Positions 20,256 through 64,000 of a stretch of 64,000 nt of DNA are shown one piece after another. This DNA comes from Deltaproteobacteria bacterium. GTDB lineage: Bacteria > Desulfobacterota > GWC2-55-46 > UBA9637. Under the pieces are notes generated by a model that was not told the origin of the DNA, ran no database searches, and saw only the letters and a list, made by a program, of their open reading frames with translations. Position numbers and translations under genes: made by a program. Each line of letters begins with the position of its first letter. The stretch's first letter is position 1. The DNA lies in assembly GCA_016214995.1 (NCBI GenBank), contig JACRML010000058.1, positions 4,194-68,193 on the forward strand. Reading direction: 5' to 3'.

Positions 20256-21200
20256 ATGATGATTAAACGTTACAACTCCCTCTCTGATTTTCTAAAAAAT
20301 AAATTCGGCTGCAAGGTCTTCAAGGTCTCCTTAAATGCAGGCCTCACCTGCCCAAACAGGGACGGCACAAAAGGCAAAGGCGGATGTATTTATTGCAGCT
20401 CTGAACCGATGATGCCTTTGAATTACGATGATAAAATGGGGATACGAGAGCAGCTTTATCAGGGCATTGAATATATAAAACAAAGACATAATGCGGAAAA
20501 ATTTATAGCCTATTTCCAGATAAATACAAATACATATGCGCCTATTTCAAGCCTAAAAAAGTTTTACGAAGAAGCGTTAGACCATCCTGATGTTGTTGGT
20601 CTGGCTGTTTCAACAAGGTCTGATTGCGTGGATAATGAAGTTTTAGATTTGCTGGCAAAGCTTGCAAAAGAAAAATTCCTCTGGCTTGAAATGGGGCTTC
20701 AATCATCTCACAACAAAACCCTTGAACTAATAAACAGGTGTCATACTGCTGAGGATTTTGCCGATGCTGTAAAAATGGCTGACGAGAGAGGCATCCATGT
20801 ATGCGCCCATGTAATCCTCGGCCTTCCCGGAGAAACCAAAGAGGAGATGTTTTCAACAGCCCGCTTTCTGGCCAATCTTGATATATGGGGCATAAAACTG
20901 CATCACCTTCATATACACAAAGGCACGAAACTTGAAGAAATGTATAAGAGGCATGAAATTAAACCCCTTGGGCTCGAGGAATATTCGAATATGGTTGTAG
21001 ATTTTTTACAGGAGATTCCAGAGGATGTTATAATACACAGGCTTTGCGGCGATACAGCAAGAAGGTTTTTGATTGCCCCTGACTGGAGCGTGAATAAATT
21101 TATCATACTTGATAACATTCATAAAATCATGAAACAACGAAACACTTATCAGGGAATAAAAATGAGAGTGCATTGTGAACTGCAAACCGTTCACAGTTAA
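20256..21200 (+). CDS. Radical SAM protein, TIGR01212/YhcC-like family
   Basis: It has the N-terminal pattern KVSLNAGLTCPNRDGTKGKGGCIYCS. Length is 314 aa. Confidence 0.75.
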   Translation: MMIKRYNSLSDFLKNKFGCKVFKVSLNAGLTCPNRDGTKGKGGCIYCSSEPMMPLNYDDKMGIREQLYQGIEYIKQRHNAEKFIAYFQINTNTYAPISSLKKFYEEALDHPDVVGLAVSTRSDCVDNEVLDLLAKLAKEKFLWLEMGLQSSHNKTLELINRCHTAEDFADAVKMADERGIHVCAHVILGLPGETKEEMFSTARFLANLDIWGIKLHHLHIHKGTKLEEMYKRHEIKPLGLEEYSNMVVDFLQEIPEDVIIHRLCGDTARRFLIAPDWSVNKFIILDNIHKIMKQRNTYQGIKMRVHCELQTVHS

Positions 21201-21232
21201 CAGTTTACATATTATATCAAAGGAGGTTTTTC

Positions 21233-34680: not shown

Positions 34681-34751
34681 CAGGTTATGGGCAATAGGCT
34701 ATAGGCCTTCCGATGTCTTTCCTATTACCTATTGCCCTTGCCTATTGCCTG
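34681..34751. repeat. Palindrome of GGCAATAGG-type units between surA-like and pdxA
   Basis: CAGGTTATGGGCAATAGGCTATAGGCC pairs with CCTATTACCTATTGCCCTTGCCTATTGCCTG. Confidence 0.7.
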
Positions 34752-34755
34752 TTTT

Positions 34756-35727
34756 TTACAGTCTCACCTCTATATATGCCTTTTTCATTACTTCTTCCAG
34801 CCAAAGTTTGTATCTTTCATCTATAACCTTCTGAAAGATGGTATTCCTAATCTCATCCTCAACCTCTGAAAGAGGCCTTGCCGCCGCCCCCTGCTTATCT
34901 ATCAGCTGTATTATGTGAAATCCTGTAGAGGTTTTGATTACATTGCTTATCTCGCCAGTCTTTAATCCAGTTGCAGCCCGCTCTATTGCTGCATCCATCT
35001 CACCTGCTTTAATATAGCCAAGGTCGCCGCCTTCTTTTGCATTAGGCCCTTGCGAATACTCCTTCGCAAGCCTTACAAAATCTTCTCCACCCCGGGCTGC
35101 GGCAAGGATATTATCTGCCTTCTTCTCTATATCTTTTCTTTTATCCTGTTCACTGGAGAGCAGTGATATTATTCGCAGCCTATGCGTTACGGGGCCAGAG
35201 AATTTACCCTGATTCTGCCTGTAATAGGCTTCTATATCTTCATTAGATATTTTTGCATTTGAGCGAAATTCTTTGTTTATAAACTTTACCTGCCTGATTT
35301 GGTCCTTAAGCTGCTCCCGGTATTCCTTGAAGGTAAGGCCGTTTCTTGCCAGAGCGCTTAAAAGTTCTTGCTGGCTTACATTGTTTTGCCTTTTTACATC
35401 TTCAATAGCATTGTCTATCTCTTTTTCGCTGATGGTGATTCCTGCTTTATTTGACGCCTGCTCAACTAATTTTTTCTCAATAAGCTGATCCAACACCTTG
35501 CTCTTTGTCTCTATAATCTTTTTCCGCTTATCTTTATCATTGCCCTTTATATCTTCCAAGCCAGCAGTGGCAACATTCAATTCAGACAGGGTAATAGCGC
35601 TGTCGTTTACAACAGCCACAACCCTGTCTACAATCTCAGCGTGAGCAGGGAAAGACAGTAAGCAGTAAGCAGTAAGCAGCAGCAATTTAAATCGTAAATC
35701 GTAAATCGTAAATCGTAAATCAATCAC
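34756..35727 (-). CDS. surA: SurA-like periplasmic chaperone / parvulin PPIase
   Basis: It has a SurA N-domain and a parvulin motif (GGDLGYIKAGEM...STGFHIIQL). Its signal peptide is encoded by heptamer arrays. Confidence 0.75.
   Translation of the reverse strand: MIDLRFTIYDLRFKLLLLTAYCLLSFPAHAEIVDRVVAVVNDSAITLSELNVATAGLEDIKGNDKDKRKKIIETKSKVLDQLIEKKLVEQASNKAGITISEKEIDNAIEDVKRQNNVSQQELLSALARNGLTFKEYREQLKDQIRQVKFINKEFRSNAKISNEDIEAYYRQNQGKFSGPVTHRLRIISLLSSEQDKRKDIEKKADNILAAARGGEDFVRLAKEYSQGPNAKEGGDLGYIKAGEMDAAIERAATGLKTGEISNVIKTSTGFHIIQLIDKQGAAARPLSEVEDEIRNTIFQKVIDERYKLWLEEVMKKAYIEVRL
35656..35721. repeat. Two adjacent heptamer arrays, (CAGTAAG)3 and (AAATCGT)4-5
   Basis: It reads CAGTAAGCAGTAAGCAGTAAGCAGCAGC...AAATCGTAAATCGTAAATCGTAAATCGTAAATC. 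It covers the first ~24 codons of the surA-like gene. Confidence 0.9.
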
Positions 35728-36767
35728 AACAACTCCTCCTTAACCTCTATCCTTGCCCTTTGTTTTAATTCTTGCATCCATACCTGAAATTCTGCATCGC
35801 TTTTTTCTTTTTTCAGCTTATTTATTATCTGGTTTTTTACCTCTGAAAATTTCAGATCCTTTGCACCTCTTTTCTCTTCAACCCTGAAAATATGATAACC
35901 ATACGCAGTTTTTACAACCTGACTCAGCTTGTTTACAGGGAGAGAAAATACTACATCCTCAAACTCCTTTGGCATAATGCCTTTGCTAAAAAAACCCAGG
36001 TCTCCGCCCTTTTTGCCCTCGGGGCCTAAAGAAACCTCTTCAGCTAGTTTTGCGAAATTTTCTCCTTTTTTTAATCTTTCCCTTATTTGATTGGCCTCAT
36101 CTTCCGTCTTCACTACAATCATCAGCGCCCTTATCTGCTCCTCAACTTTATAATCCGCTATATGCTCTTTATAATATTTTCTGGCATCATTTTCTTTCAC
36201 GGTAAGCTTAGAGGTAATAGCCTTATCTATAACCTTCTTAATCAATAATTTCTTTTTAAGCTCTTCCTTCCATTTTTCCATGCTTCCGTACCTGCTCAGA
36301 ATAGTTGGTTCAAACGCATCTCCGGCGTATTCTCTTTTAATTTCTTCCAGTTCTCGTGAAAGTTCGTCAGCATCAACATTCAATGCCACCTTCTTTGCCT
36401 CTTCTAAAAGCAACTCTTCTTCAAGAAATTGATTAACAAGGGCCATCTTAAGATTTCGCAGCTCTTCATCTTTTATCTCTGCGGCTGCTTCGTCTTCTAT
36501 AAATAACTTTTTAAAGGTATCCTGAAATTCTCCGCGTGTAATTTCCCTGTCATTTATTTTTATGATAATCTCACTGACAGACGGAAGGCTTTTTTCTTCT
36601 TCCTTCTTTTTACAACCTGCAGTGAGCAGGAAAAAAAGAGACAAGAGGCAGAAGGCAAGAGGCAAGAGGCGAAATCTTATTTTGCTTCTGACTTCTTGTT
36701 TCCGGCTTCTTGCTTCCGATTTTTGTTTCTCCGTCATCTGTTTTCTCTCATTTATTTTGTATTTCAA
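35724..36767 (-). CDS. Parvulin-type PPIase lipoprotein (PrsA/PpiD-like)
   Basis: It has a lipoprotein-type signal ending LLTAGC. It has the parvulin motif GGDLGFFSKGIMPKEFE...AYGYHIFRV. Confidence 0.75.
   Translation of the reverse strand: MKYKINERKQMTEKQKSEARSRKQEVRSKIRFRLLPLAFCLLSLFFLLTAGCKKKEEEKSLPSVSEIIIKINDREITRGEFQDTFKKLFIEDEAAAEIKDEELRNLKMALVNQFLEEELLLEEAKKVALNVDADELSRELEEIKREYAGDAFEPTILSRYGSMEKWKEELKKKLLIKKVIDKAITSKLTVKENDARKYYKEHIADYKVEEQIRALMIVVKTEDEANQIRERLKKGENFAKLAEEVSLGPEGKKGGDLGFFSKGIMPKEFEDVVFSLPVNKLSQVVKTAYGYHIFRVEEKRGAKDLKFSEVKNQIINKLKKEKSDAEFQVWMQELKQRARIEVKEELL
36637..36717. repeat. Purine-arm / pyrimidine-arm heptamer palindrome (GCAAGAG / CTTCTTG units)
   Basis: AGAGACAAGAGGCAGAAGGCAAGAGGCAAGAGGC faces TTGCTTCTGACTTCTTGTTTCCGGCTTCTTGCTTCC. 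It belongs to the same family as 58541-58629. Confidence 0.85.
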
Positions 36768-37055: not shown

Positions 37056-40000
37056 TCACCCTTCTGCCAATTGTTTCAATATATATCTTGTTTCATCCCA
37101 GATTTCTCTGTCCTTTTCCAAAAGGATGATAAATTTTGAATCCGGTGTAAGTCTGAACCTTTTGGGGTTCTTTTTTGCAAGCGCCAGCAGCCTTTGCGGC
37201 TCCACAATGGTATCATTTGAAAATGTTATATAAATATAATTCCCTTTTTGAGATAGCTCGGCTATCCTTAGTTTTTTAAGCAAAAATTTTATTCCCATTA
37301 TTTTAAACAGATTGCCTGCCAGTTCGGGGATATCACCAAATCTATCCTTTATCTCTTCTCTCAGTTTACTTACATCTTCCTCAGAAATGACAGAGGCAAT
37401 CCTTTTGTAGATATTGAGCCTTTGCCTTTCATCAGGGATATATCCTTCCGGTATATATGCAGATACTTTGAGACTTATCTCCGGCTCAATCTCCTTTTCC
37501 ATGTTTTCGCCCTTTAACTCTTTTATGGCATCCTCTAAAAGCTGCGTATACAGCTCAAAACCAACCTCTGCAATCTGGCCTGATTGTTTTGCTCCGAGGA
37601 GTTCCCCTGCGCCTCTTATCTCTAAATCATAAGCAGCAAGCCTGAAACCAGCGCCAAGGTCTGAGAGCTCCTGAAGCACCTTCAGCCTTTTCTTTGCATC
37701 TTCTGTTAATATTAATTCGGGCGGTGTCAAAAGATAGGCATATGCCCGGTGACTGCTCCTGCCAACCCTTCCGCGCAGTTGATATATTTCCGCAAGACCA
37801 AATCTATCTGCCCTGTTTATCAATATTGTATTTGCCGATGGGATATCAAGGCCTGATTCTATGATGGATGTAGAAAGCAATATGTCATATTCTTTATTTA
37901 TAAAATCAGCCATTATCTTTTCCAATTCCTTTTCATGCATCTGGCCATGAGCAACTCCAGCCCGTGCCTCCGGGACAATTCTCTTGAGATAATCGGCCAT
38001 TGCCGCTATACTCTGCACCCTGTTGTGAACAAAGAATATCTGGCCGCCTCTGGCAATCTCTCTTCTTATTGCATCCTTTATCAAGTCGTCATCAAACTTT
38101 GCCACAACAGTCTTTATTGCAAGCCTGTCTTCAGGAGGTGTATTTATTATACTCAAATCTCTTATGCCTGCCAGAGACATATGAAGGGTTCTTGGAATAG
38201 GTGTTGCCGTTAATGTAAGGACATCTACCTGCTTTTTCATTTGTTTCAACCTCTCCTTGTGGCTCACCCCGAATCTGTGTTCTTCATCTACAATAATGAG
38301 GCCGAGGTCTTTAAATACAACATCCTTTTGCAAAAGCCTGTGCGTGCCTATGATTATGTCCACCTCTCCGCTGGCAAGTTTTTTCAAGGTTTCTCGCTGC
38401 TCTTTAGGGTTTCTAAAACGGCTTAAAACATCTATCGTTGCAGGATATGAAGCAAACCGGTTTTTAAATGTGAGATGGTGCTGCTGGGCAAGCACCGTGG
38501 TCGGCACAAGCATGGCCACCTGTTTGTTGTCCAACACAGCCTTGAATGCGCCCCGCATGGCAACCTCTGTCTTTCCATAACCAACATCGCCGCAGACAAG
38601 CCTGTCCATGGGTTTTGGCTCTTCCATGTCTTTCAGCACATCTTCAATGGCATTGACCTGGTCTGGGGTCTCATCATATTCAAAGGATGCCTCAAACTCT
38701 GAAAACAGCCTTTCACCCTTGGAAAAAGAAAAACCCTCACCCACTTTTCTATGTGCATAAAGTTCCAGAAGTCCCTTTGCCATCTCCTCAACAGCCTGTT
38801 TAACCTTACTTTTTGTTTTCTCCCATTTTGTAGAACCGAGCTTGTCTATCTCCGGCCTTTTACCTTCTACACCGTGATATTTGCCTACAAGATTTACTCT
38901 TTGGACAGGCAGATATAATTTGTCTCCACCCTGATACTCCAAAATAAGAAAATCATTTTCTATAACCTGCCCCGAACCCTGTCCTAATCTCATTTCATGG
39001 ATTGATTCAAAATCCTCTATCTTAAGCCGCTTAAGCCCTTTATAGAGTCCAATGCCATGGATAGAATGCACAATAAAATCTCCGGCATTCAAGTCTTCAA
39101 GTTGGGTGAGAAATGCTTCTATCTTACTGGAGGGCGGCACACGTCTCTTGACCCTTTGCCCAAAAATCTCCTCCTCTGTAATGATAGCAAGCTTAATAGC
39201 AGGAAAGCGGAAGCCAGAACTTAGGTCGCCTCTGACGATAGCGATGCGAGATGTGGAATATGTGATTATCCCACACCCTACATCCCACATCTCACATCCG
39301 AGATCATATCCTTCCAACAACTCTTTTAATCTTTCTGCCTGGCCATGTGTATGACAAACAAGGAATATGTTCCACCCAAGGTCATGCCATCCCTTTATCT
39401 TATCTGCAAGGGGCTTGAGGAGTTCATCTTTTCTTATTGCAATGTCCTGCCTTGTATCAAGATTGGACTCGGTGGGAAGCTCAAAACCTTCAGCATGCGG
39501 TTGGTGCGCCCCGACAACAACTATGCCCATTTTATCAAACGCAGATTTAAATTCACTTATGGACACATAAAGTTCTTCTGGTTTAACAAAGAATTGCCGT
39601 TTTTGCTCAAGGTTTGTTTTCCCATCCGATATCTCACTTTCAAATCTTTTAACTGCTTCCTCTATCTCGTTTTGATTATCAAAAAAGAGAAGACAATCGT
39701 CCGGAAGATAATCAAATAACGTATCCAGTTTGTTGTAAAAAAGAGGTGATAAAAAATCAATGCCAGAAAAGATAATGCCATCCCGTACCCTGTCTGAAAT
39801 GGATTCTCTTATATCTTTGGGAAGTTCCAATTCCTCAGCCCTTTGCCTGAGTTTTTCTTTGGCCAGTTCCATGCCTTCTTGCGAGAAAATAATCTCCCTT
39901 GCAGGCAGAATTATAGTTTCATTCATTATCTCCTTAGACCGTTGAGTTGCAATATCAAAGGTTCTCATGGCCTCAACTTCGTCTCCAAAGAATTCAATCC

Positions 40001-40637
40001 TTATCGGAGCAGAATATGACGGTGGGAATATGTCCAGTATCCCACCGACAATCCTCATTTCACCTCTTTCCTCAACCATTGCCGCTCTTGAGTAGCCCAT
40101 TTGCGAAAGCCTTTTCAAAACCTCATCTCTGTTCATCTCTTTACCAACTTCACACCGTATAACCCCATTTACTCCCTCTTTTGCAAAGGGAGACGAAGGG
40201 GGGGTTAATACGCTTTTAGGCATTACCTTCTGTAAAATGGCTGAAGATGTTGTAACGATTATGTGGTGAGATGTTTGGGTGAGTTTGTAGAGAATATTGA
40301 TCCTGGCAGCGATTATGTCAGGATGCGGGGACTGCGCCTCAAAAGGCAGAATCTCCCATGATGGATAGAAAAACGCAGTATTGCTACCAAGGAAAAAATT
40401 TATATCCTTAGTGAAATTTTCTGCCTCTTCCTGGGTTGGAGATATTATTAAAACCGATTTGAGATTTCGGTGCGCCTGCGAAAGCGGGTCATGAGATTTA
40501 TAAAGGGAGGCAATAAGAAAAGCTTTTGACGAGCCCAAAAGACCAGAAAGGGCAAACCGCTCCCCTGGCTTTAGACAAGAGATGCTCTCTAATGCCTTGT
40601 AAAAGGTATTGGTTTTGGTAGGATAGACTGCTGTCAT
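37056..40637 (-). CDS. mfd: Transcription-repair coupling factor
   Basis: 1193 aa. It has a UvrB-homology N-terminal region. Superfamily-2 helicase motifs are present (GDVGYGKTEVAMRGA, DEEHRFG, TATPIPRT), as is a TRG motif region. Confidence 0.92.
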   Translation of the reverse strand: MTAVYPTKTNTFYKALESISCLKPGERFALSGLLGSSKAFLIASLYKSHDPLSQAHRNLKSVLIISPTQEEAENFTKDINFFLGSNTAFFYPSWEILPFEAQSPHPDIIAARINILYKLTQTSHHIIVTTSSAILQKVMPKSVLTPPSSPFAKEGVNGVIRCEVGKEMNRDEVLKRLSQMGYSRAAMVEERGEMRIVGGILDIFPPSYSAPIRIEFFGDEVEAMRTFDIATQRSKEIMNETIILPAREIIFSQEGMELAKEKLRQRAEELELPKDIRESISDRVRDGIIFSGIDFLSPLFYNKLDTLFDYLPDDCLLFFDNQNEIEEAVKRFESEISDGKTNLEQKRQFFVKPEELYVSISEFKSAFDKMGIVVVGAHQPHAEGFELPTESNLDTRQDIAIRKDELLKPLADKIKGWHDLGWNIFLVCHTHGQAERLKELLEGYDLGCEMWDVGCGIITYSTSRIAIVRGDLSSGFRFPAIKLAIITEEEIFGQRVKRRVPPSSKIEAFLTQLEDLNAGDFIVHSIHGIGLYKGLKRLKIEDFESIHEMRLGQGSGQVIENDFLILEYQGGDKLYLPVQRVNLVGKYHGVEGKRPEIDKLGSTKWEKTKSKVKQAVEEMAKGLLELYAHRKVGEGFSFSKGERLFSEFEASFEYDETPDQVNAIEDVLKDMEEPKPMDRLVCGDVGYGKTEVAMRGAFKAVLDNKQVAMLVPTTVLAQQHHLTFKNRFASYPATIDVLSRFRNPKEQRETLKKLASGEVDIIIGTHRLLQKDVVFKDLGLIIVDEEHRFGVSHKERLKQMKKQVDVLTLTATPIPRTLHMSLAGIRDLSIINTPPEDRLAIKTVVAKFDDDLIKDAIRREIARGGQIFFVHNRVQSIAAMADYLKRIVPEARAGVAHGQMHEKELEKIMADFINKEYDILLSTSIIESGLDIPSANTILINRADRFGLAEIYQLRGRVGRSSHRAYAYLLTPPELILTEDAKKRLKVLQELSDLGAGFRLAAYDLEIRGAGELLGAKQSGQIAEVGFELYTQLLEDAIKELKGENMEKEIEPEISLKVSAYIPEGYIPDERQRLNIYKRIASVISEEDVSKLREEIKDRFGDIPELAGNLFKIMGIKFLLKKLRIAELSQKGNYIYITFSNDTIVEPQRLLALAKKNPKRFRLTPDSKFIILLEKDREIWDETRYILKQLAEG
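39243..39305. repeat. Intragenic palindromic short-period array inside mfd
   Basis: GAGATGTGGAATATGTGATTATCCCACACCCTACATCCCACATCTC is self-complementary. It encodes the peptide LGCEMWDVGCGIITYSTSRI. Confidence 0.7.
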
Positions 40638-45837: not shown

Positions 45838-47211
45838 TTAATCAACAAGGTATCCTCCTGTGACAGTCTGGATACTTCTGCAAACTACCCCCACAATTCT
45901 TTTAATGTCTTCTTTTGTTATGCTCAACGGCGGCATTATTACAATAGTGTCGCCGAGCGGTCTTATAATAAGACCATGTTTTCTTGTCTCCACGCAAACT
46001 TTATAGCCGACCCTTTCTTCCGTCTGAAAAGGCTCTTTTGTTCTTTTATTCCTGACCAACTCTATGCCGACAATAAGCCCCTTCTGCCGCACATCGCCCA
46101 CATGGGGCAGGGCTTTAAAACCTTCCAACAACCCAGATAATAATACAATCTTCGGTTTAAGTTTTTGTATGGTTCTTTCTTTTTTAAATATGTTTAGATT
46201 GGCTATAGCTGCCGCGCATCCCAATGGATTGCCTGTATAGGTATGTCCGTGGAAAAATGTTTTAAATTCTTCGTATTTACCAAGAAATGCCTTGTAAATC
46301 TTGTTTGTCGTAAGCGTTGCTGCAAGCGGCAGATAACCTCCGGTTATGCCCTTTGCAAGACAGAGAAAATCAGGGGGGACATTTTCATGCTCGCACGCAA
46401 AGAGTTTTCCGGTTCTTCCAAAACCCGTTGCAACCTCATCGGCAATGAGCAAGATATTATATTTTGTGCAGAGCCTTCTTACCTCTTTTAAAAACCCAGG
46501 GGGTGAGACAATCATACCCGCAGCCCCTTGCACAATTGGCTCAATGATGCACGCCGCTATTTCTCTGTGATATTTTTTTAAAATCTCCTCAAACTTTTTT
46601 ATGCAGGCAATCTTGCATGACGGATATTTCTTGTCTATCGGGCATCTGTAACAATACGGATAATATGCCTTGTATGTTGGAAATAACAGCGGTTTGTATT
46701 TTTCTACAAACACATCAATCTCGCCGACACTCATTGAGCCGAATGTATCGCCGTGATATGCGCCAGTGAAGGCAACAAACTTGGTTCGGGAGTTTGAGTT
46801 CAGAGTTTGGCGTTGCCTCCAGTACTGAAACGCCATTTTCAAAGCTATCTCCACAGCAGTAGAGCCGTTGTCCGAATAAAAGACCTTTGTCAAACCCTTT
46901 GGCGCAATCTTTACAAGTTTTTCGGCTAATTCAATTGAAGGCGCATTGCCAAGCCCCAAAAGTGTTGAGTGGCTTATTTTATCAACCTGTTTTTTTATCG
47001 CATCATTTATTTCTTTTTTCCTGTGGCCGTGCACATTGACCCATAGAGATGAAGTCCCGTCAAAATATTTTTTGCCATAGGTGTCAATAAGATAATTCCC
47101 CTTGCCCGTTTCAATGATGATAGGTGTTTCCCTTTCCCATTCCCTCATCTGCGTGAACGGATGCCAGAGGTGTTTTTTGTCAATGGTGTCAAGCCTTTTA
47201 TTTTTCCGCAT
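45838..47211 (-). CDS. bioA: Adenosylmethionine-8-amino-7-oxononanoate aminotransferase
   Basis: It reads HLWHPFTQM and has class-III aminotransferase motifs (LIADEVATGFGRTGKLFA). The ATG at 47211 is preferred over 47259. Confidence 0.88.
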   Translation of the reverse strand: MRKNKRLDTIDKKHLWHPFTQMREWERETPIIIETGKGNYLIDTYGKKYFDGTSSLWVNVHGHRKKEINDAIKKQVDKISHSTLLGLGNAPSIELAEKLVKIAPKGLTKVFYSDNGSTAVEIALKMAFQYWRQRQTLNSNSRTKFVAFTGAYHGDTFGSMSVGEIDVFVEKYKPLLFPTYKAYYPYCYRCPIDKKYPSCKIACIKKFEEILKKYHREIAACIIEPIVQGAAGMIVSPPGFLKEVRRLCTKYNILLIADEVATGFGRTGKLFACEHENVPPDFLCLAKGITGGYLPLAATLTTNKIYKAFLGKYEEFKTFFHGHTYTGNPLGCAAAIANLNIFKKERTIQKLKPKIVLLSGLLEGFKALPHVGDVRQKGLIVGIELVRNKRTKEPFQTEERVGYKVCVETRKHGLIIRPLGDTIVIMPPLSITKEDIKRIVGVVCRSIQTVTGGYLVD

Positions 47212-48073
47212 GGACAAACATAACCTCATAAGTGGCATAGACATAGTTGCAGGTTGCAAGTTGCAAGTCTTGAGTCTTGAATCTATCTTTATAGATTTCT
47301 GCCATTGTCTTTAACAAAGAGCCTCTGCCAAGACTTTTATCACCATCTTTGAATGGATTGCCTGCGCCAATGGATTTCATGGTTTTTAACAATGCCCACA
47401 TATCAGGATAGGTCTTCATCATCTTCGTTGTTTCAATGGATATGTTTTTAAAGCCCACACTTTCAAGAACGGATTGGATGGCCTTCTTTTCTGAAAAATC
47501 CATAAATGGCGGCAGGCCATTTTTATTAAATTTGGCCAATGTCTTGGCATAACAATACCTTAATTCCTTCAATGTCTCTGGCCCAAGGGTAGAAAACATG
47601 AATATGCCGCCGGGTCTCAAAATCCGGTGCGCCTCTTTAAAAGACCCTTCTAAATTGCCAATCCACTGGTATGTAAGATTTGAAGCTGCGATATCAAAGG
47701 TATCATTCTTGCAAGGTAATATTTCTCCGTCAGTGGTTATAAGATGTATTTTTTTATCCCTTGCAACTTGTAACTTGCAACTCGCAACTTTGAGCATATC
47801 ATGGCTGATATCACAGCCGAATATATCTGCATCCGGAAATTTATCTGCAAGACCGTATGAAAGAAAGCCTGTGCCGCAACCGATGTCAATAATAGTGGTG
47901 AGTGATGAGTGGTGAGTGTTAAGTGGTAAGACAAAACTATTCAATAGTTCATCTGCTACTTCTTTTTGGAAAAGAGCAATGGTGTCGTACTTGATTGCGG
48001 CTTTTGAGAACGATGCTCGTATCTTGTCTTTTAATTGCCGACCCCTGAATGCTGGTTGCTGATAGCTGCTCAT
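47198..48073 (-). CDS. bioC: Malonyl-ACP O-methyltransferase
   Basis: It has the SAM-binding motif IIDIGCGTGFLS and a BioC-like N-terminus (IRASFSKAAIKYD). It sits inside the bio operon. It carries three heptamer arrays. Confidence 0.8.
   Translation of the reverse strand: MSSYQQPAFRGRQLKDKIRASFSKAAIKYDTIALFQKEVADELLNSFVLPLNTHHSSLTTIIDIGCGTGFLSYGLADKFPDADIFGCDISHDMLKVASCKLQVARDKKIHLITTDGEILPCKNDTFDIAASNLTYQWIGNLEGSFKEAHRILRPGGIFMFSTLGPETLKELRYCYAKTLAKFNKNGLPPFMDFSEKKAIQSVLESVGFKNISIETTKMMKTYPDMWALLKTMKSIGAGNPFKDGDKSLGRGSLLKTMAEIYKDRFKTQDLQLATCNYVYATYEVMFVHAEK
47246..47280. repeat. Heptamer array (GTTGCAA/GTCTTGA units) in the bioC 3' region
   Basis: It reads GTTGCAGGTTGCAAGTTGCAAGTCTTGAGTCTTGA. 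It encodes KTQDLQLATCN. Confidence 0.85.
47759..47789. repeat. Heptamer array (CTTGCAA units) inside bioC
   Basis: It reads CTTGCAACTTGTAACTTGCAACTCGCAACTT. It encodes VASCKLQVAR. Confidence 0.85.
47896..47930. repeat. Heptamer array (GGTGAGT units) inside bioC
   Basis: It reads GGTGAGTGATGAGTGGTGAGTGTTAAGTGGTAAG. It encodes LPLNTHHSSLT directly N-terminal to the SAM-binding loop. Confidence 0.85.
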
Positions 48074-48951
48074 AATGTCTCTATGAAACCTTTTACAATT
48101 TTGTTGAACTCTTTCGGCCTTGTCAAAAACGGGGCATGGCCTGCGTCTTTGAATATCTCAAGCCTTGCATCAGGCAGATTCTTAGCAAGATACCTTCCGG
48201 TATCAACAGGGCAGACATTATCTTTTTCGCCGTGCATGATAAGAGCAGGAATCTTTATATCAGGAATAATATCCTTTAAATCAATTGCCAAAAGCGCCTC
48301 AAGGGATGTAACAGCGCTATCACAAAAGGGTTTCGTGCGAGGTTTTTTATAAAGCTCTATAAACCATCTTGCGTCAGGGCTTAAAAGTTCATCCTCTGTA
48401 AAATTCAATGGATAAAACCTCTCCATTGTTCCTGCAAAGTTCTTCTTCATATCCTTGAGCATCCGTTTTGCCACACCTGCAGATTGCCCAAATAGAAAAT
48501 CTCTTTTTGCAGTAAAACATGGCGATACTCCGATGAGCACTAGTCCTTTAAAGCAGCCGGGCATTTTTGCTGCTACTTCTAAAAGGGTCTGACCGCCCAG
48601 AGACCAGCCGATGCCGATAAAACCAGTGAACTGTGAATCGTGAACTGTAAACTGTAAAAGCTTTTCAACGGCAGGCTTAAGTGTTGGTTCAAACCATACA
48701 TCTGTTTCGCCGTGTCCGGGAAGGTCTATGGTAATGACCTGATGATTTTTTGAAAATTCTTCTAACTGATATTTCCATACCCTTGAATCTGTTGCCCAGC
48801 CGTGGAGGAAGAGAAGTGCGGAATCGGGGAAAGAGCGACAGGGAGAATCGGAGAAAGAAAGAATTCTCTGTTTCCCCGTTTCCCCGTTTCCCCGTTTCTC
48901 TATTTCCCGCTGTCGCTCTTTAATTTCTGTAGCTTTAAGCAAAATTAGCAA
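48070..48951 (-). CDS. bioH: Pimeloyl-ACP methyl ester esterase (alpha/beta hydrolase, BioH-like)
   Basis: It has LLFLHGWATDS and the nucleophile elbow GIGWSLGG. It lies between bioF and bioC. An N-terminal extension of about 45 aa contains a 100-bp palindrome. Confidence 0.65.
   Translation of the reverse strand: MLILLKATEIKERQREIEKRGNGETGKQRILSFSDSPCRSFPDSALLFLHGWATDSRVWKYQLEEFSKNHQVITIDLPGHGETDVWFEPTLKPAVEKLLQFTVHDSQFTGFIGIGWSLGGQTLLEVAAKMPGCFKGLVLIGVSPCFTAKRDFLFGQSAGVAKRMLKDMKKNFAGTMERFYPLNFTEDELLSPDARWFIELYKKPRTKPFCDSAVTSLEALLAIDLKDIIPDIKIPALIMHGEKDNVCPVDTGRYLAKNLPDARLEIFKDAGHAPFLTRPKEFNKIVKGFIETL
48626..48658. repeat. Heptamer array (GTGAACT units) inside bioH
   Basis: It reads GTGAACTGTGAATCGTGAACTGTAAACTGTAAA. 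It encodes LQFTVHDSQFT just before GWSLGG. Confidence 0.85.
48821..48921. repeat. Imperfect 100-bp palindrome centred on GAATTC, containing (GTTTCCC)4
   Basis: AAAGAGCGACAG (48830-48841) pairs with CTGTCGCTCTTT (48910-48921). The right arm reads GTTTCCCCGTTTCCCCGTTTCCCCGTTTCTC. It is read in frame as part of the bioH N-terminus. Confidence 0.8.
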
Positions 48952-50137
48952 CCGTTTCCTTTATGGTTTCCAGTGCATATTCCAAATCGTCCCATGAGTG
49001 GTTTGCCATCAGGGTAATTCTCAGCCTGCTTGTATTGTCTGGAACTGTTGGCGGTCTTATGGCCTGAACAAATATCCCTTTATCCAGAAGGTTCTTGCTT
49101 ATCTGAACTGCCTTGTCAGCCTTGCCAATCAATACGGGAATAATCTGTGTTTCTGAATTCATAATATCAAGGCCTGCGTTTTTAAGGCCGTCCCTAAAGA
49201 ACTTAACCCTATCCCATAAATTCTGTCTTAACTGCGGTTCATTTTCTATTATATCTATTGCAGCAATGCTCGCTGCGCATACAGACGGAGGAAGGCTTGT
49301 GGTATAGATAAAAGAGCGGGCTTTATTTATGAGATAGTCTATAAGTTTTTTACTGCCCGCTGCATAAGCTCCGAAACAGCCCAGCGCCTTTCCGAGTGTT
49401 CCCATCTGGATTATGCTTGTCCCGTTATGTCTTAAAACGGGATTTGGATTATCTATGCCAAAATGCTCTAATGTTCCTTTGCCATTGCTGCCAAGAACCC
49501 CTGTTGCATGGGCATCGTCAACCATGAGCATACAACCATATCTATCTGCCAGTTCTGAAAGTTCTTTTAAGGGGGCGATGTCTCCGTCCATGCTGAAAAT
49601 GCCGTCGGTAATGATGAGTTTGGAGTTTGGAGTTCGGAGTTCGGAGTTCTTTTTCAGGAGACCTTCCAGCGCATTTACATCGCCATGTGGATACCGCTTA
49701 ACCTCTGCCCTGCTCAGGATGCAGGCATCCACAATTGAGGCATGGTTTAATTTATCTGAAAATATTAAATCGCCTCTGCCAGCAAGGGCTGTAATAATTC
49801 CGATATTTGCATGATAGCCTGAATTGAATACAAGTGCTGCCTCTGTGCCTTTGAATCTGGCAAGCCTTTGTTCAAGCTCATTATGAGGCTCCATATTGCC
49901 TGATACAAGTCTTGATGCGCCAGAGCCAAAACCATATTTTTCAATGGCCAAGATTGCAGCCTCTTTTATTTTTGGATGGTTGGCAAGTCCGAGATAGTTG
50001 TTAGAGCAGAGGAGGATAACATCTTTACCATCTATATTTACCCTCGGCTCCTGCTTTCTTTCTATAAGACGCAGATTGCGATAGAGACCGGCATTTTTGA
50101 GCCGAGATAGTTCTTTGTCTATAAGATTTGTCAACAT
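48935..50137 (-). CDS. bioF: 8-amino-7-oxononanoate synthase
   Basis: It has PLP-enzyme motifs (TDGIFSMDGDIAPL, DDAHATGVLG, GTLGKALG). Length is 400 aa. Confidence 0.9.
   Translation of the reverse strand: MLTNLIDKELSRLKNAGLYRNLRLIERKQEPRVNIDGKDVILLCSNNYLGLANHPKIKEAAILAIEKYGFGSGASRLVSGNMEPHNELEQRLARFKGTEAALVFNSGYHANIGIITALAGRGDLIFSDKLNHASIVDACILSRAEVKRYPHGDVNALEGLLKKNSELRTPNSKLIITDGIFSMDGDIAPLKELSELADRYGCMLMVDDAHATGVLGSNGKGTLEHFGIDNPNPVLRHNGTSIIQMGTLGKALGCFGAYAAGSKKLIDYLINKARSFIYTTSLPPSVCAASIAAIDIIENEPQLRQNLWDRVKFFRDGLKNAGLDIMNSETQIIPVLIGKADKAVQISKNLLDKGIFVQAIRPPTVPDNTSRLRITLMANHSWDDLEYALETIKETVANFA
49627..49660. repeat. Heptamer array (GAGTTTG/GAGTTCG units) inside bioF
   Basis: It reads GAGTTTGGAGTTTGGAGTTCGGAGTTCGGAGTTC. 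It encodes NSELRTPNSK just before the TDGIFSMDGD motif. Confidence 0.85.
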
Positions 50138-53307: not shown

Positions 53308-53477
53308 TAAATACAGTAGGCAGTATGCAGTAAGGAGTATGCAGTAAAAAAACAGAAGATGATAGGTTGAGAAATTGAGAAGTTAAGAATTTTCACCCTC
53401 TTGTCGTTTCAGTTTCTTATCCTCTTAACTTCTTTTCCTCTTTTCTGCCTACTGCTTACTGTCTACTGCCTACTTTT
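53308..53477. terminator. Nested 170-bp palindrome of two heptamer families between convergent genes
   Basis: The outer arms are CAGTAGG CAGTATG CAGTAAG GAGTATG CAGTAAA, facing CTGCCTA CTGCTTA CTGTCTA CTGCCTA. The inner arms are GGTTGAGAAATTGAGAAGTTAAGAA, facing TTCTTATCCTCTTAACTTCTTTTCCTC. The right arm ends in TTTTT. Confidence 0.6.
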
Positions 53478-54050: not shown

Positions 54051-54905
54051 CTAATTCTCTAAATTTGCCAACATCTTAAGTTTCTTTATATTCTTAAGCT
54101 TTGTTACAGCCTCTTTTTCTATCTGCCGTACCCTTTCTCTGCTTACACAAAGCCTGTCTCCTATCTCCTGCAGAGTTAGGGAGGGTTCTTTCATCATCCT
54201 GTTTTCTATGACATATCGTTCTTTCTTGTTCAGAGTTGAAAGGGCATTTAATATCTCGTCCTTCACAACGTTTTGTTCCTGAACAGCCAGGGCAGCATCC
54301 TCCGGGTTAAGTGACGTATCGGGAAGCATATCAAGATATGTAGTTCCTTCCTCTCCCTGATTGGTCGAAACTTGATTATCCAACGATAGGTCGCGATATT
54401 CGGCATCCTCTCCCTTTTCCCAGTCACCTGTCACCAGATTCCCGGCGCCAGTTTCAAACCTTGCGTCTGATGACTTGTGACTTGTGTCTTGTAACTTGCG
54501 ACTCTCAAGCCGATAAAAAAGTTTCTTTTTAAGGGCAGCAACACCTTTATTAACAAGATTCCAATTCTTTAGTATAAACGCCTGAATATGAGACCTTATC
54601 CACCAAACTGCATAAGTGATAAGACGGCAGCCTTTGAAAGGGTCGAATTTCTTTACCGCCTTCATAAGCCCGATATTCCCCTCTTGTATAAGGTCAGCCA
54701 GCCTGAACCCATACTCCCTGTACTCCATTGCAATCTTCACAACAAATCTTAGATTTGAGGTTATAAGCTTATGGGCAGCATCAAGGTTGTTTTGTTTTCT
54801 GAAACGGACAGCAAGCTCAAACTCCTCTTTCATTGATAGAAGCGGGAACCTGTTTGCCTGAATAAGATATGATTGAATAGAATTTAATAGTACAATCTGT
54901 GTCAT
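54051..54905 (-). CDS. rpoH: RpoH-like (sigma-32 type) RNA polymerase sigma factor
   Basis: It reads LRFVVKIAMEYREYGFRLADLIQEGNIGLMKAVKKFDP and YAVWWIRSHIQAFILKNW. It has an RpoH-box-like LKKKLFYRLE, and region 4.2 reads LQEIGDRLCVSRERVRQIEKEA. Confidence 0.75.
   Translation of the reverse strand: MTQIVLLNSIQSYLIQANRFPLLSMKEEFELAVRFRKQNNLDAAHKLITSNLRFVVKIAMEYREYGFRLADLIQEGNIGLMKAVKKFDPFKGCRLITYAVWWIRSHIQAFILKNWNLVNKGVAALKKKLFYRLESRKLQDTSHKSSDARFETGAGNLVTGDWEKGEDAEYRDLSLDNQVSTNQGEEGTTYLDMLPDTSLNPEDAALAVQEQNVVKDEILNALSTLNKKERYVIENRMMKEPSLTLQEIGDRLCVSRERVRQIEKEAVTKLKNIKKLKMLANLEN
54460..54504. repeat. Heptamer array (CTTGTGA units) inside the rpoH-like gene
   Basis: It reads CTTGCGTCTGATGACTTGTGACTTGTGTCTTGTAACTTGCGACTC. 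It encodes ESRKLQDTSHKSSDAR in the region 2-3 linker. Confidence 0.85.
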
Positions 54906-55078: not shown

Positions 55079-55477
<399 letters not shown>

Positions 55478-55520
55478 TCATGTTTTTACAGTTCACCGCT
55501 CACAGTTTACTGTATATAAT

Positions 55521-57000: not shown

Positions 57001-58647
57001 TCATCTTAATAATTGTGTAACTTTCTTTTGACCGCCCACATCTTCAAACGGGAAATCCTTCCTATAAGGCACAACAGCAAGGCTTATATTGCCTATTTCT
57101 TTTATCTTGGTTAAAAGCCCTATCACTTCCTGATCTGGCAGGGGTTGCGACGTGTTCCAATCAATTGTCTGAAATTTCATCAGAACCTTTTGCGGCTCAC
57201 CGACCAGCCTGACCGCCTCGCTGGTCATATTTTGTATCAGGCTCTGTATCTCATAAGGTTCTTTTTTTAACTCATCATGCATCTGTCGATGATAGGCCAT
57301 TACCGCATAATAATCAAACCACTGCTTTACAGCCTCATCAAGGCTCTGGGAAAGCCATGCCATTGCGTAAGGAGGGTTTGAGATACTCTCATACATCAGA
57401 TTTATTACAAATTTTGCATTCGGGTTTTTCTTTTTTACAACTGCTTTAATTCTCATTGCAACCTGAAGCAGCCTTTTATTTTTCCACGCTGCCCATCTCC
57501 AGAACTCCGGAGCATATTGAGGGTTCAAGGGTTCAAGGGTTACAGAGTTCAAATTCTGCCCCATGTTATTATAAAGTTCAGCCGGTATAAGCCTCTTGTC
57601 GTTGTCCTTTTTATAAAACGCATCACTGTAAGAACCAAAACCTTCATTATGCTTTAAAACAAGGTCATCCTGAAAAAGTACGCCATCGATAGGATATTCC
57701 GCAAGGTCATTAAAGAGTTTTTCCAGATGATAAACAGCCGCTTCGTTAAAAAGGTCAAGTCCTTTGCAGGAAACAATATTTTTTGTATGAAAGTCGTACG
57801 CCTTGCAGCCAAGGTCTTTTCTATGTTCCAGGCCATAGTCAGCATATCTCGTTGTCATCCACGCAAATACCTTTAATCCTTTTTTATGCGCCATATCAAG
57901 AACAGTCCCAAGTATATCCTCAACTACCGGAGATTCTTTTGTTTTAAAATAGACCCCAACCTTGCTCCTCGGTTTTATAAATTGATAAAATCTATCTTCC
58001 TTATTATGGAAAACCCTTAAAATAATAGTATCTATGCCTGCCCCCTTTAACCTATCCAGTTCCTTATCAACTTCCTTATAGTTTTTCCCTTCAAACAAGG
58101 CAATCTGAACAGTCCGTAATGGTGACGAAAAACCTAGAGGTTGAGAGGTTAAGAGGTTGGATTGAACCTTTACTACCGGAAGTTTAGGCGCAGCAACAAA
58201 CTCTGCCTCTCCCTGCTTAAAACCTGCGGGGACATGTTTCAATTTCGCTTTAGCAATTTCCAATTTTAAAGATGCTTCTCTTTTAAACTCATTATCGGGA
58301 AAGTTCTTAATAAGCTGCTGCCATTGACCAACAGCCTCTTGATACATGGATGCATTGAGACACGCATCACCAATCATGTATTGGGCATGAGGAATAATCT
58401 GGCTACCCGGAAAATAATCTATTACCCTGCCGAACTCCCTGGCAGCAACCGTATAATGGCCCTGTTTATAAAGAAACATGGCGTAGTTGAACTGGTCTTT
58501 GTCTGTGAGGAAGGGACGATTCCCCTGAGCGTTTAGGGAAGATGCAAGAAGCAAGAGGCAAGAGGCAAGAGATAAGAGGTAAGAGACAAGATTTTTTTCT
58601 TGCTTCTTGCTTCGGACTTCTTGCTTCTTATTTCTAAAACAACACAT
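57001..58647 (-). CDS. Exported TPR/YbgF-like plus glycoside-hydrolase-like (PgaB C-terminal-like) protein
   Basis: Its signal peptide ends SLNA|QG. A TPR-like segment reads YAMFLYKQGHYTVAAREFGRVIDYFPGS. A TIM-barrel-like region reads IDTIILRVFHN...KGLKVFAWMTTRY. The functional call is weak. Confidence 0.4.
   Translation of the reverse strand: MCCFRNKKQEVRSKKQEKNLVSYLLSLASCLLLLASSLNAQGNRPFLTDKDQFNYAMFLYKQGHYTVAAREFGRVIDYFPGSQIIPHAQYMIGDACLNASMYQEAVGQWQQLIKNFPDNEFKREASLKLEIAKAKLKHVPAGFKQGEAEFVAAPKLPVVKVQSNLLTSQPLGFSSPLRTVQIALFEGKNYKEVDKELDRLKGAGIDTIILRVFHNKEDRFYQFIKPRSKVGVYFKTKESPVVEDILGTVLDMAHKKGLKVFAWMTTRYADYGLEHRKDLGCKAYDFHTKNIVSCKGLDLFNEAAVYHLEKLFNDLAEYPIDGVLFQDDLVLKHNEGFGSYSDAFYKKDNDKRLIPAELYNNMGQNLNSVTLEPLNPQYAPEFWRWAAWKNKRLLQVAMRIKAVVKKKNPNAKFVINLMYESISNPPYAMAWLSQSLDEAVKQWFDYYAVMAYHRQMHDELKKEPYEIQSLIQNMTSEAVRLVGEPQKVLMKFQTIDWNTSQPLPDQEVIGLLTKIKEIGNISLAVVPYRKDFPFEDVGGQKKVTQLLR
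57520..57556. repeat. Heptamer array (GGGTTCA units), intragenic
   Basis: It reads GAGGGTTCAAGGGTTCAAGGGTTACAGAGTTCAAATTC. It encodes NSVTLEPLNPQ. Confidence 0.85.
58133..58168. repeat. Heptamer array (GAGGTTR units), intragenic
   Basis: It reads CCTAGAGGTTGAGAGGTTAAGAGGTTGGATTGAACC. It encodes QSNLLTSQPLG. Confidence 0.85.
58541..58629. repeat. Purine-arm / pyrimidine-arm heptamer palindrome (GCAAGAR / CTTCTTG units)
   Basis: GATGCAAGAAGCAAGAGGCAAGAGGCAAGAGATAAGAGGTAAGAGACAAG, then ATTTTTT, faces TCTTGCTTCTTGCTTCGGACTTCTTGCTTCTT. It covers codons 7-36 of the 57001-58647 gene. Confidence 0.9.
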
Positions 58648-60007: not shown

Positions 60008-60074
60008 ACAGTGAATGGTATTTAGTGAATAGTAGTCGGCCGGCAGCAACTATTCACTGTTCACTATTTACTGT
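60008..60074. repeat. Palindrome of AGTGAAT/ATTCACT heptamer units
   Basis: ACAGTGAATGGTATTTAGTGAATAGTAGTCGGCC faces GGCAGCAACTATTCACTGTTCACTATTTACTGT. It lies in the divergent radA / HEAT-gene intergenic region. Confidence 0.8.
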
Positions 60075-60138
60075 TTTAATCATTTCTACAATTGACAATT
60101 AACCCTTTTCTGTTATTATAAAGGCAGTTTATTTCCTT

Positions 60139-61638: not shown

Positions 61639-61708
61639 GGAAACAGAAAAAGAGTTTTTCTAATTTCTAATTCCTAATTTCTGATTTTGAAATGGAGCGA
61701 ATCAACAT

Positions 61709-63170: not shown

Positions 63171-64000
63171 TTAAATAACAGGTTTGTCTCTGAAATAATC
63201 CACTGTCTTTCTAATTCCATGCTCCAGAGAAACTTGCGGCGACCAGCCAAGTATTTTGTTTGCCTTTGTAAAATTAATCACGCTTCTTTTTTGTTCTCCA
63301 CTTTTATGAGGCCCATATTTTTCCTTAAATCCAGCACCTGTACTATTAACAAGTTCTTTAAATAATTGTTTTATAGTAGTCTCTTTGCCGGTGCCTATAT
63401 TAAAAATAGTTGGGAGTTGAGAGTTATGGGTTGAGAGTTGAGATAAGGCCAATACATTGGCCTTGGCCACATCTCCCACATATACAAAATCTCTGGTTTG
63501 CATTCCATCACCGTTTATCACAGGCTGTTCACCTCTAAGAAGTTTCTGAGCAAAAATCGCCACAACCCCTGCCTCACCATGAGGAGCTTGCCTTGGCCCG
63601 TAGACATTAGCATACCTCAAGATAGTAGAATTCAAGCCGTATACCTGACCATAGAAAAAAAGATAATGCTCAACAGATAGTTTCGCTGCGCCGTATGGGC
63701 TTAAAGGATTTGTAGGGTGGGATTCTGTAGCGGGAAATTCTTCCTGCTCCCCATATATTGCTCCGCCTGTAGAGGCAAATATAATCTTTTTTACGCCATA
63801 TTGAATACAGTTTTGCAGCAGGTTGAGCGAACCTAATATATTGACCCTGGCGTCAAGTACCGGATTTGCCACTGATTTTCGCACATCTATCTGCGCAGCA
63901 TGATGGTTTACGACATCAAATCTGCATTCCTTGAATATATCCCTTACACCTTCATCGCATATGTCAGCCTTGAAAAGTTTGGCCTTGGGACCGATATTCT
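63171..64000 (-). CDS. NAD-dependent epimerase/dehydratase (GalE-like); 5' end lies beyond the window
   Basis: It has the catalytic motif SPYGAAKLSVEHY and reads YANVYGPRQ. The frame remains open upstream of the first in-window Met (63884) to the window edge (..FDVVNHHAAQIDVRKSV). Confidence 0.8.
   Translation of the reverse strand, partial: NIGPKAKLFKADICDEGVRDIFKECRFDVVNHHAAQIDVRKSVANPVLDARVNILGSLNLLQNCIQYGVKKIIFASTGGAIYGEQEEFPATESHPTNPLSPYGAAKLSVEHYLFFYGQVYGLNSTILRYANVYGPRQAPHGEAGVVAIFAQKLLRGEQPVINGDGMQTRDFVYVGDVAKANVLALSQLSTHNSQLPTIFNIGTGKETTIKQLFKELVNSTGAGFKEKYGPHKSGEQKRSVINFTKANKILGWSPQVSLEHGIRKTVDYFRDKPVI
63409..63447. repeat. Heptamer array (GAGTTGR units) inside the epimerase gene
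   Basis: It reads GTTGGGAGTTGAGAGTTATGGGTTGAGAGTTGAGATAAG. It encodes LSQLSTHNSQLPT. Confidence 0.85.

Follow-up and report, generated by a model that had tools for sequence, protein, structure and literature searches.

The stretch of DNA analysed here (the window) comprises 64,000 nucleotides of contig JACRML010000058.1 from GenBank assembly GCA_016214995.1, and the BioC protein that it encodes is identical to MBI5048610.1 from a "Deltaproteobacteria bacterium" metagenome-assembled genome (MAG). Its minus strand carries the biotin genes bioF, bioH and bioC, whose identities were confirmed and which belong to a biotin cluster with bioA, bioB and bioD. All three contain short tandem arrays, mostly of degenerate heptanucleotides, that are translated in frame as part of the enzyme. 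Further arrays lie in genes for an RpoH-family sigma factor, PdxA, Mfd, a GalE-like epimerase and a PgaB/GHL13-like protein, at gene starts and in intergenic DNA (Table 1); bioC has three array slots and the PgaB-like gene four arrays. The peptides that an initial annotation of the sequence had quoted from bioC, bioH, bioF, rpoH and the epimerase gene are all present and in frame.

The nearest BioF loci (L001-L004, 72-78% identity) come from groundwater Deltaproteobacteria/Thermodesulfobacteriota MAGs, and a metagenome scan with BioC added 11 related contigs (L081-L091, 55-87% identity); L005, the nearest array-free orthologue, served as outgroup. Consistent with the earlier remark to that effect, nothing about the window is cyanobacterial. 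The proposal that the repeats are lineage-specific did not survive the comparison, as similar arrays of four to five units were found among the fetched loci in Nitrospinota, Nitrospirota, Thermodesulfovibrionia and a Pseudomonadota MAG.

Table 1. Array-bearing biotin genes, repeat arrays and hairpins in the 64-kb window.
Feature	Coordinates	Strand	Unit, encoded peptide and context
BioF-type aminotransferase	48935-50137	-	identity confirmed
BioH-type alpha/beta hydrolase	48070-48951	-	identity confirmed
BioC-type methyltransferase	47198-48073	-	identity confirmed
bioF array	49616-49649	-	sense unit AACTCCR, 4 units + 5 nt; peptide NSELRTPNSK
bioH array	48620-48658	-	sense unit TCACAGT; peptide LQFTVHDSQFT, directly ahead of GWSLGG nucleophile elbow
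bioC site 1 array	47894-47927	-	sense unit CTCACCA; peptide LPLNTHHSSLT, ahead of strand beta-1 (IIDIGCG)
bioC site 2 array	47760-47790	-	sense unit AAGTTGC; peptide VASCKLQVAR; inverted complement of site 3b
bioC site 3 compound array	47245-47284	-	sense (AGAYTCA)2.7 then (CTTGCAA)3.4; peptide KTQDLQLATCN
Imperfect long hairpin, bioF/bioH junction	48830-48921	-	one arm (GTTTCCCC)3.6 on + strand; -39.4 kcal/mol, z = -3.3
rpoH array	54459-54506	-	encodes ESRKLQDTSHKSSDAR, directly after RpoH-box-like KKKLFYRL
GalE-like epimerase array	63408-63443	-	sense unit CTCAACT; encodes LSQLSTHNSQLPT, between helix ..ANVLAL and strand IFNIGTG
mfd array	39243-39301	-	+ strand ATCCCAC x4.6 with short adjacent inverted partner; linker peptide ..GCEMWDVGCGI..
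pdxA array	34493-34533	-	+ strand TGAAATT x6; encodes ISNFKFQISNLNI, variable region
Period-8 array, PgaB/GHL13-like gene	57520-57552	-	AGGGTTCA x4.1
Period-8 array, PgaB/GHL13-like gene	58136-58159	-	AGAGGTTG x3
PgaB/GHL13-like signal peptide, inverted pair	58535-58629	-	AGGCAAG/TTCTTGC (+ strand); encodes KKQEVRSKKQEKN-LVSYLLSLASCLLLLASSLNA; forms hairpin
Peptidyl-prolyl isomerase lipoprotein signal peptide, inverted array pair	36636-36729	-	encodes KQKSEARSRKQEVRSK..LLPLAFCLLSLFFLLTAGC, with lipobox
SurA-like protein N-terminus and signal peptide, two adjacent arrays	35651-35726	-	CAGTAAG, TAAATCG on + strand; IDLRFTIYDLRFKLLLLTAYCLLSFPAHA
GspJ-like pseudopilin prepilin leader array	4650-4682	-	+ strand AATTTGA x4.7; MRLKNKISNFKFQISNSANNG|FTLLE; array directly ahead of G|FTLLE
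Compound hairpin between convergent yjbQ and rpoH	53314-53474		A(7-mer) B(8-mer) loop B' A', then T-run; largest
Inverted-array hairpin, radA 5' end/intergenic	60008-60075		-29.3 kcal/mol, z = -5.7
Inverted arrays, AATTTGA family	6488-6616		intergenic
Short hairpin, GTGAACT family, gene end	21168-21209		unit family of bioH array
Short hairpin, GTGAACT family	55459-55513		upstream of minus-strand gene
CCTATTG x4.4 array, surA-like gene/pdxA spacer	34721-34750		intergenic
TTTCTAA x4.4 array	61657-61687		intergenic

Period 7 is present in the window far beyond what base composition alone yields on shuffling. Tandem Repeats Finder (TRF) listed about 25 arrays of period 7 and about 7 of period 8, and some 30 arrays consist of four to five degenerate heptamers or, in a few cases, octamers, where shuffled sequence gives none. 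A strict version of the lag test, requiring 17 or more matches out of 21, returned 14 arrays at lag 7, 0-2 at lags 4-6, 8-13 and 15, and none in shuffles, with 9 at the harmonic lag 14; a looser test returned 16 arrays at lag 7 against 0.05 in shuffles. Across the lag tests, lag 7 therefore stands at 14-16 arrays against 0-0.05 in shuffled sequence and 0-4 at other non-harmonic lags, and on this excess the arrays reported in the initial annotation are real. Exact runs of at least 10 positions likewise number 9 at lag 7 and 10 at lag 14, with 0-2 at lags 2-6, 8-13 and 15. When all fetched loci are considered, period 7 is the commonest TRF period (255 of 951 rows). Array size has a narrow peak: of 139 in-group arrays, 84 contain 4.0-5.0 units and 66 are 30-34 nt long, and the same sharp mode of four to five units is seen in intergenic arrays. 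Roughly 60% of the arrays listed for the window (about 19 of about 31) fall within coding sequence. Octamer arrays coexist with the heptamers, at 48864-48908, 57520-57552, 58136-58159 and 53367-53442 in the window and at 4660-4690 in L003. The units show mild enrichment of TCA, CAA, ACT and CAG and depletion of TA-containing triplets, with otherwise only mild compositional bias; a common recognition motif was rejected, since avoidance of stop codons and of the TA dinucleotide accounts for the triplet bias.

The array hosts were aligned with in-group and outgroup orthologues and with solved structures. The arrays occupy tolerant positions, as had been predicted, namely helix-to-strand loops, linkers and leader peptides. 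In BioF, BioH, BioC site 1 and the epimerase the array forms the loop that leads from the end of a helix to a beta-strand in a Rossmann-like or alpha/beta fold, and in Mfd and RpoH it lies in a linker (a search of the PDB with the sigma factor at E 1e-45 gave no match). The bioF array, for instance, is situated between the helix ..LEGLLKK and the strand LIITDG, ahead of the SMDGD motif. An AlphaFold2 (AF2) model of BioC, with a mean predicted local distance difference test (pLDDT) score of 81, places site 1 at a helix end and loop (residues 49-59), site 2 at the end of a helix (residues 96-105) and site 3 in a loop (residues 266-276) whose pLDDT falls below 50 at residues 269-274.

The same alignments bear on whether the arrays are insertions, as the initial annotation had described them. 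This description holds for bioC site 3, where homologues without arrays have 23 residues and those with arrays 30-44, and which is the sole clear insertion among the bioF, bioH and bioC sites. It does not hold for bioH, whose length equals that of L005 (E. coli BioH, 1m33, is 5 residues shorter), or for bioC sites 1 and 2, which show no length change against L005 and are about 4-5 residues longer than more distant homologues. The bioF array has 10 residues where outgroups have 6-8, a gain of only 2-4, and exceeds Thermus BioF/KBL (8s1y) by 3. Elsewhere, the mfd array adds 3 residues relative to E. coli Mfd (2eyq), and the net insertion in pdxA is zero when compared with 2hi1. By these comparisons most arrays are not simple insertions, and periodic DNA has replaced native sequence in most places.

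Most in-group genomes carry an array at the exact orthologous position of every bioF, bioH and bioC site, usually with the same total length. The repeat unit, in contrast to the slot, often differs between genomes, and does so in all copies of one array together. For example, the window, L001, L002 and L004 all have four units plus 5 nt in the bioF slot, built from AACTCCR, CACCCCT, CACTCAT and CACTCGC/AACTCAC, respectively; in L003 the slot holds three copies of the period-8 unit CACCAATT, showing that octamer arrays can take the same slot as heptamers, and in L090 a palindrome stands in place of the array. The bioH slot is built from TCACAGT in the window, ATCCCAC in L082, L089 and L090, CCACTGT in L002 and AACTCCN in L004. 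At bioC site 1 the relatives have CATTGCC, CCCACAT or CTTGCAA, with degenerate sequence in L003; site 2 retains weak periodicity in L004; and site 3 combines [AGATTCA][CTTGCAA] in most genomes and [GGAGTTY][ATCCYAC] in L082 and L084. Because all four units, and even the period, change in parallel, independent point mutation is excluded, and either homogenisation within the array or wholesale replacement is needed. Unit families also recur across slots and in either orientation. ATCCCAC is present in three slots of the L082/L089 lineages, and one family is coding in both orientations, GAACTCC giving NSELRTP in BioF and its complement GGAGTTY giving FGVWSSELGV in BioC, which argues against selection on one particular peptide.

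Assembly or sequencing artefacts, a possibility named in the initial annotation, almost certainly do not account for these patterns. Arrays occupy the same slots in numerous independent assemblies (NCBI, JGI, ENA and Logan), the reading frames are unbroken, and the variation is concerted and tracks relatedness.

Length variation, which the initial annotation had only anticipated, was examined in 66 BioC homologues together with two control regions, and it exists. Each control region has one length in 66 of 66 homologues. In 33 sequences, by comparison, site 3 has one of the lengths 23, 30, 37 and 44 residues, and 17 others have 27, 34 or 41; site 2 falls into classes of 27 and 34/35 residues. 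At site 1, homologue P0027 equals P0013 plus 7 residues, a single FGFRISD heptad. Residue identity at i,i+7 in site 3 is 0.205, compared with 0.03-0.07 at lags 5, 6, 8 and 9, and at the DNA level site 3 of the window is exactly 21 nt (three units) shorter than in L081, L086, L089 and L003. Contracted alleles (P0022 and P0029) retain one or two units of each sub-array. Length polymorphism at these sites thus proceeds in steps of 21 nt, that is, 7 residues or three units; a need for net length to stay a multiple of three would account for the three-unit steps. A separate observation concerns the BioC homologue P0040, which is deleted from the site-1 array (..LPLTT) straight to ..DGEILP and has lost the GCGTG S-adenosylmethionine-binding motif; this allele looks like the product of recombination between the array and similar sequence further downstream, or else of chimeric assembly.

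Such steps bring to mind contingency loci, in which gain or loss of one unit would toggle bioC, bioH, bioF and other genes within a population. The NeuO O-acetyltransferase of E. coli K1 prophage CUS-3 reportedly contains, at the 5' end of its gene, a phase-variable coding AAGACTC heptanucleotide variable number tandem repeat with many units. The NeuO repeat keeps the frame only when its units number a multiple of three, and each triplet adds a heptad; the BioC lengths, which differ by 7 residues in in-frame steps of three units, share this trait. The unit of bioC site 3a (47266-47284), encoding KTQD.., is also AAGACTC, the neuO repeat. This match is probably a coincidence, although some heptamers may be especially prone to slippage or especially well tolerated. 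Several arrays in one gene would, moreover, raise its frameshift rate. Even so, we regard phase variation as very improbable here: NeuO is a single phase-variable locus in a surface-modification gene, whereas the arrays of the window are many, short (four to five imperfect units) and housed in housekeeping enzymes, a sigma factor and a repair protein rather than in surface or host-interaction genes, and all full-length BioC homologues are in frame, with no out-of-frame alleles among them.

Between genomes, the arrays can be more alike than their surroundings, with identities of 0.9-1.0 against 0.77-0.87 in the flanks. Purifying selection on the array sequence was considered and dropped, because the high identity is part of tracts that also span ordinary coding sequence. 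A sliding-window scan of positions 47198-50137 of the window against L003, L004, L081, L084, L086 and L090 showed that the relatives are mosaics, with tracts of 35-240 nt at 94-100% identity, ordinary coding sequence included, set in a background of 70-85%. One such tract covers 48807-48988 in the comparison with L004, which is itself 69% identical overall. It is because of these mosaic tracts that arrays are either near-identical or unrelated between genomes. The pattern indicates that frequent recombination among related groundwater populations, and not selection on the arrays, lies behind the apparent array conservation.

Many arrays occur as inverted pairs. The recurrence of unit families as paired arms, pointed out in the initial annotation, was recovered at 53315-53348/53441-53474, 58546-58629, 60008-60074, 21168-21209, 55459-55513 and 6488-6616, and inside bioC at 47242-47268/47766-47792. 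The arms are separated by 15-497 nt, and compared with shuffled sequence the pairs fold as hairpins with z of -3.3 to -5.9. The first of the listed pairs belongs to the spacer between yjbQ and rpoH; in L086, L087, L003 and L002 the orthologous spacer has small hairpins of the ordinary kind instead, so that array hairpins must be gained and lost. The long hairpin where bioF meets bioH probably belongs to the BioH reading frame and extends the protein at its N-terminus. Judged by position, its counterpart in L082 would be the 7-mer arrays L082:24 and L082:52, of the AACCCCG and ACCGCTG families.

These hairpins raise the question of whether the arrays are functional cis-elements, that is, binding sites for a nucleoid-associated or global regulator or for an RNA-binding factor, with the hairpins acting in termination or mRNA stability. 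This interpretation would fit the constancy of the four-to-five-unit size over many unit families and phyla, the pairing of arrays on opposite strands, the resemblance of some arrays between genomes beyond that of their flanks, and the location of intergenic pairs at gene ends with T-runs, together with folding much stronger than that of shuffled sequence (z of -5.7 to -5.9). It is also how the elements of Geobacter metallireducens were interpreted, namely as sites bound by a regulator or as RNAs with a regulatory role (Aklujkar et al. 2009, PMC2700814). Against it, dozens of unrelated units used in both orientations make a single sequence-specific binder unlikely, slots accept unrelated units or palindromic elements, the high between-genome identity falls within the recombination tracts described above, a scan of the window against Rfam matched no family (a tRNA scan was also empty), and the hairpins of the orthologous spacers are ordinary in relatives. 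A role of this kind appears decidedly improbable.

Inverted arrays are found at gene starts as well. At three of these, inverted array pairs encode whole predicted signal peptides, the purine-rich arm specifying a basic, K/R-rich n-region and the complementary arm a hydrophobic h-region rich in L, S, C and A. The pair at the start of the PgaB/GHL13-like gene folds with -33.3 kcal/mol (z = -5.9), and the SurA-like signal peptide at 35651-35726 includes ...LLLLTAYCLLSFPAHA. Length steps recur in this setting. A Nitrospinota lipoprotein has an array-encoded signal peptide of 41 residues in L006 (10880-11000) and of 34 residues in L062 (14235-14330), which has three CTCATTG units (21 nt) fewer, and in L008 (4290-4360) it has a conventional 20-residue signal peptide without arrays.

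Presence and absence of this sort would also be expected if the arrays were small dispersed or mobile modules, either single units of about 33 nt or hairpin pairs with arrays as arms, resembling repetitive extragenic palindromes (REP) or miniature inverted-repeat transposable elements (MITE), of which the coding copies are in-frame survivors. The characteristic size of about 30-34 nt, near 11 codons, speaks for such modules, as do the common inverted pairs with arms able to form hairpins, the switching of slots to unrelated families, the replacement of the 53314-53474 hairpin in L086, L087, L003 and L002, and the contrast between array-coded (L006, L062) and conventional (L008) signal peptides. 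Unit families recur within the window at unrelated loci, for example AATTTGA at 4650, 6553 and 34493; within these 64 kb at most three loci share one unit (AATTTGA). Furthermore, of 148 distinct arrays from all loci, 41 have a run of at least five A or five T (A5/T5) no more than 12 nt from a boundary, against 18.7 +/- 4 for random positions (2.2 times); terminator tails, lysine codons and target preference are the candidate explanations. On the other side, copies of one family differ in unit variants and unit number, and slippage would predict the stepwise 21-nt classes. Where array-bearing alleles were aligned with array-free ones, no conserved termini or target-site duplications were seen, without a systematic search, and no transposase, such as a REP-associated tyrosine transposase (RAYT), was seen among the annotated window genes, again with no systematic search made. 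The net change against array-free orthologues amounts to 0-4 residues in bioH, bioF and bioC sites 1-2, not 11, and insertion of a ready-made 33-nt module was rejected because the net changes in bioF, bioH and bioC do not equal 11 codons. Unit families are shared across phyla only weakly above chance (6 observed, 2.5 expected, P ~0.03), an overlap too weak to uphold a shared repertoire that would imply horizontal mobility. Taken together, mobile modules are a possible but unlikely source of the arrays.

Palindromic elements distinct from the arrays were encountered in several of the same genes. In mfd, an in-frame palindromic element at 40155-40200 (-) encodes PPSSPFAKEGVNG, an 11-residue insert relative to E. 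coli Mfd, and similar "PP..KGG" palindromes occur in the BioF slot of L057 and L062 and at BioC site 1 of L090, slots that hold heptamer arrays here. Since palindromes occupy array slots in other MAGs, these slots accept more than one kind of small repeat. In bioF, a 27-nt in-frame insert at 49415-49441 (-) forms a small palindrome, CCCGTT-TTAAGACAT-AACGGG, and encodes PVLRHNGTS; it is shared with the distant L090 and L091 and absent from L001-L004, L084, L086 and L089. The window has a single copy of this insert, which differs from the heptamer arrays in kind. Outside the array hosts, the gene at 26592-27653 (-) matches the mercury-methylation corrinoid protein HgcA (NF040863, E 6e-120).

Heptanucleotide repeats as such are not new. 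In many prokaryotes the commonest long simple sequence repeat (SSR) is the heptanucleotide one (Mrazek et al. 2007, as cited in PMC4679880 and PMC4692102), and the window arrays fit both marks of long SSRs, namely head-to-tail units of 5-11 nt above chance and a unit number that varies between relatives. The closest precedent is that of G. metallireducens (Aklujkar et al. 2009, PMC2700814), where, according to the available passages, the Gmet_H4## elements are four tandem heptanucleotides (GGACCGG) within genes and the class 1-3 paired sites are 3-5 tandem 7-9-mers on opposite strands. As in the window, these elements comprise 3-5 tandem units of 7-9 nt in several unit families, are paired on opposite strands at variable distance, and are present in one species and missing from a close relative. 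The consensus units given there are GGACCGG, MTYCTGA, GTTGCTYN and TCTCCGTS. GGACCGG is absent here, CTTCTGA/CTCCTGA occurs only in L003, L081, L060 and L067 and not in the window, and GTTGCTYN and TCTCCGTS were not searched. The available passages of that paper contain no analysis of reading frame, orthologous slots, 21-nt steps or encoded peptides.

Other systems are more distant. The short tandemly repeated repetitive (STRR) sequences of (heterocystous) cyanobacteria are, in the descriptions available, likewise abundant tandem heptanucleotides with several families per genome and are attributed to polymerase slippage. They are mainly intergenic, in contrast to the largely coding arrays of this groundwater "Deltaproteobacteria" MAG, and no window array matches STRR1 (CCCCAGT), STRR2 (TTGGTCA) or STRR3 (CAACAGT), whose one-mismatch neighbours are found in other loci only. 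The GGGAATC/GGGGAYT repeats of Xanthomonas and Nostoc share the preference for about four units, some are inverted and most are transcribed (Rehm et al. 2015, PMC4692102). These repeats are G-rich and under-represented in coding sequence, whereas G-tracts are missing from most units here and many of the arrays fall in coding sequence; the G-quadruplex explanation offered for the four units of Xanthomonas was rejected for the present arrays, most of whose units have no G or C tracts. Marine Beggiatoaceae carry hundreds of sets per genome of TAACTGA direct repeats, few of them in open reading frames and those mostly at protein termini, with tolerance depending on the stop codons of the unit (MacGregor 2015, PMC4679880). 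That single dominant unit has stops in all three forward frames and is therefore essentially intergenic, in 5' untranslated regions, in contrast to the many stop-free units inside conserved enzymes here. The canonical STRR, TAACTGA, GGGAATC and GGACCGG units were not found in the window. The remark that no description of this in-frame, multi-family pattern in housekeeping enzymes was known needs to be narrowed: the kind of element is already known, with the four-heptamer elements of Geobacter and NeuO as precedents. In the literature searched, conserved in-frame slots in housekeeping enzymes with concerted unit turnover, length classes quantised at 21 nt, and signal or leader peptides built from inverted arrays are apparently undescribed.

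We favour, with moderate confidence, an explanation in which slippage-prone heptanucleotide repeats are filtered by frame and by tolerance of the encoded peptide, and recombination shuffles their alleles. Slippage during replication, or recombination of units out of register, would resize and homogenise the arrays, so that a change in one unit could spread to all, and a 1-nt indel could turn period 7 into period 8; the CACCAATT array in bioF of L003 suggests such an indel in one unit, homogenised across the array. Coding arrays would be kept only if the peptide is tolerated, the sense strand is free of stops and the net length is a multiple of three, and slot alleles would then be exchanged among related populations via homologous recombination. 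Intergenic arrays, as inverted pairs, would form long hairpins. At the 5' end of a gene an inverted pair could serve as a signal peptide, with the n-region from one arm and the h-region from its complement, and some arrays may thus have been taken over as signal peptides or hairpins. We infer, rather than observe, that slippage is the molecular cause and that coding arrays are neutral.

Several observations weigh against this explanation. Simple slippage does not predict the sharp mode of four to five units, which intergenic arrays share, and a change from 1.7 to 4.7 units is impossible in one slip. Single-unit slippage in a housekeeping gene implies frameshifted intermediates. Within one genome, loci that are otherwise unrelated share unit families far more often than chance would give, which suggests copying between loci or the insertion of ready-made modules, and slots switch to unrelated families even in close relatives, as at bioC site 3 of L082 and L084. 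The sharp size, the shared families and the family switches leave some room for the mobile or dispersed modules considered above. A further reading is an active, non-slippage process that operates in multiple lineages; the candidates are a selfish element, in hairpin or array form, and a repair or recombination activity that uses a template and writes period-7 sequence over stretches of about 33 nt. We judge this further reading to be distinctly unlikely. If it were true, tolerant parts of genes would be rewritten repeatedly and ready-made signal or leader peptides supplied, a generator of protein novelty in uncultivated groundwater bacteria.

Heptanucleotide repeats are usually seen as intergenic or regulatory, and here they are long-lived inside conserved enzymes. 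On a practical level, gene calling, signal-peptide prediction and the alignment of orthologues will go astray at such arrays in groundwater MAGs; for strain typing the arrays are natural markers. The arrays mark protein segments that tolerate almost any sequence, and they make frame selection visible, with slippage quantised into 21-nt steps. Inverted repeats that encode a working-looking (predicted) signal peptide suggest a simple route by which export signals and loops may be created or replaced.

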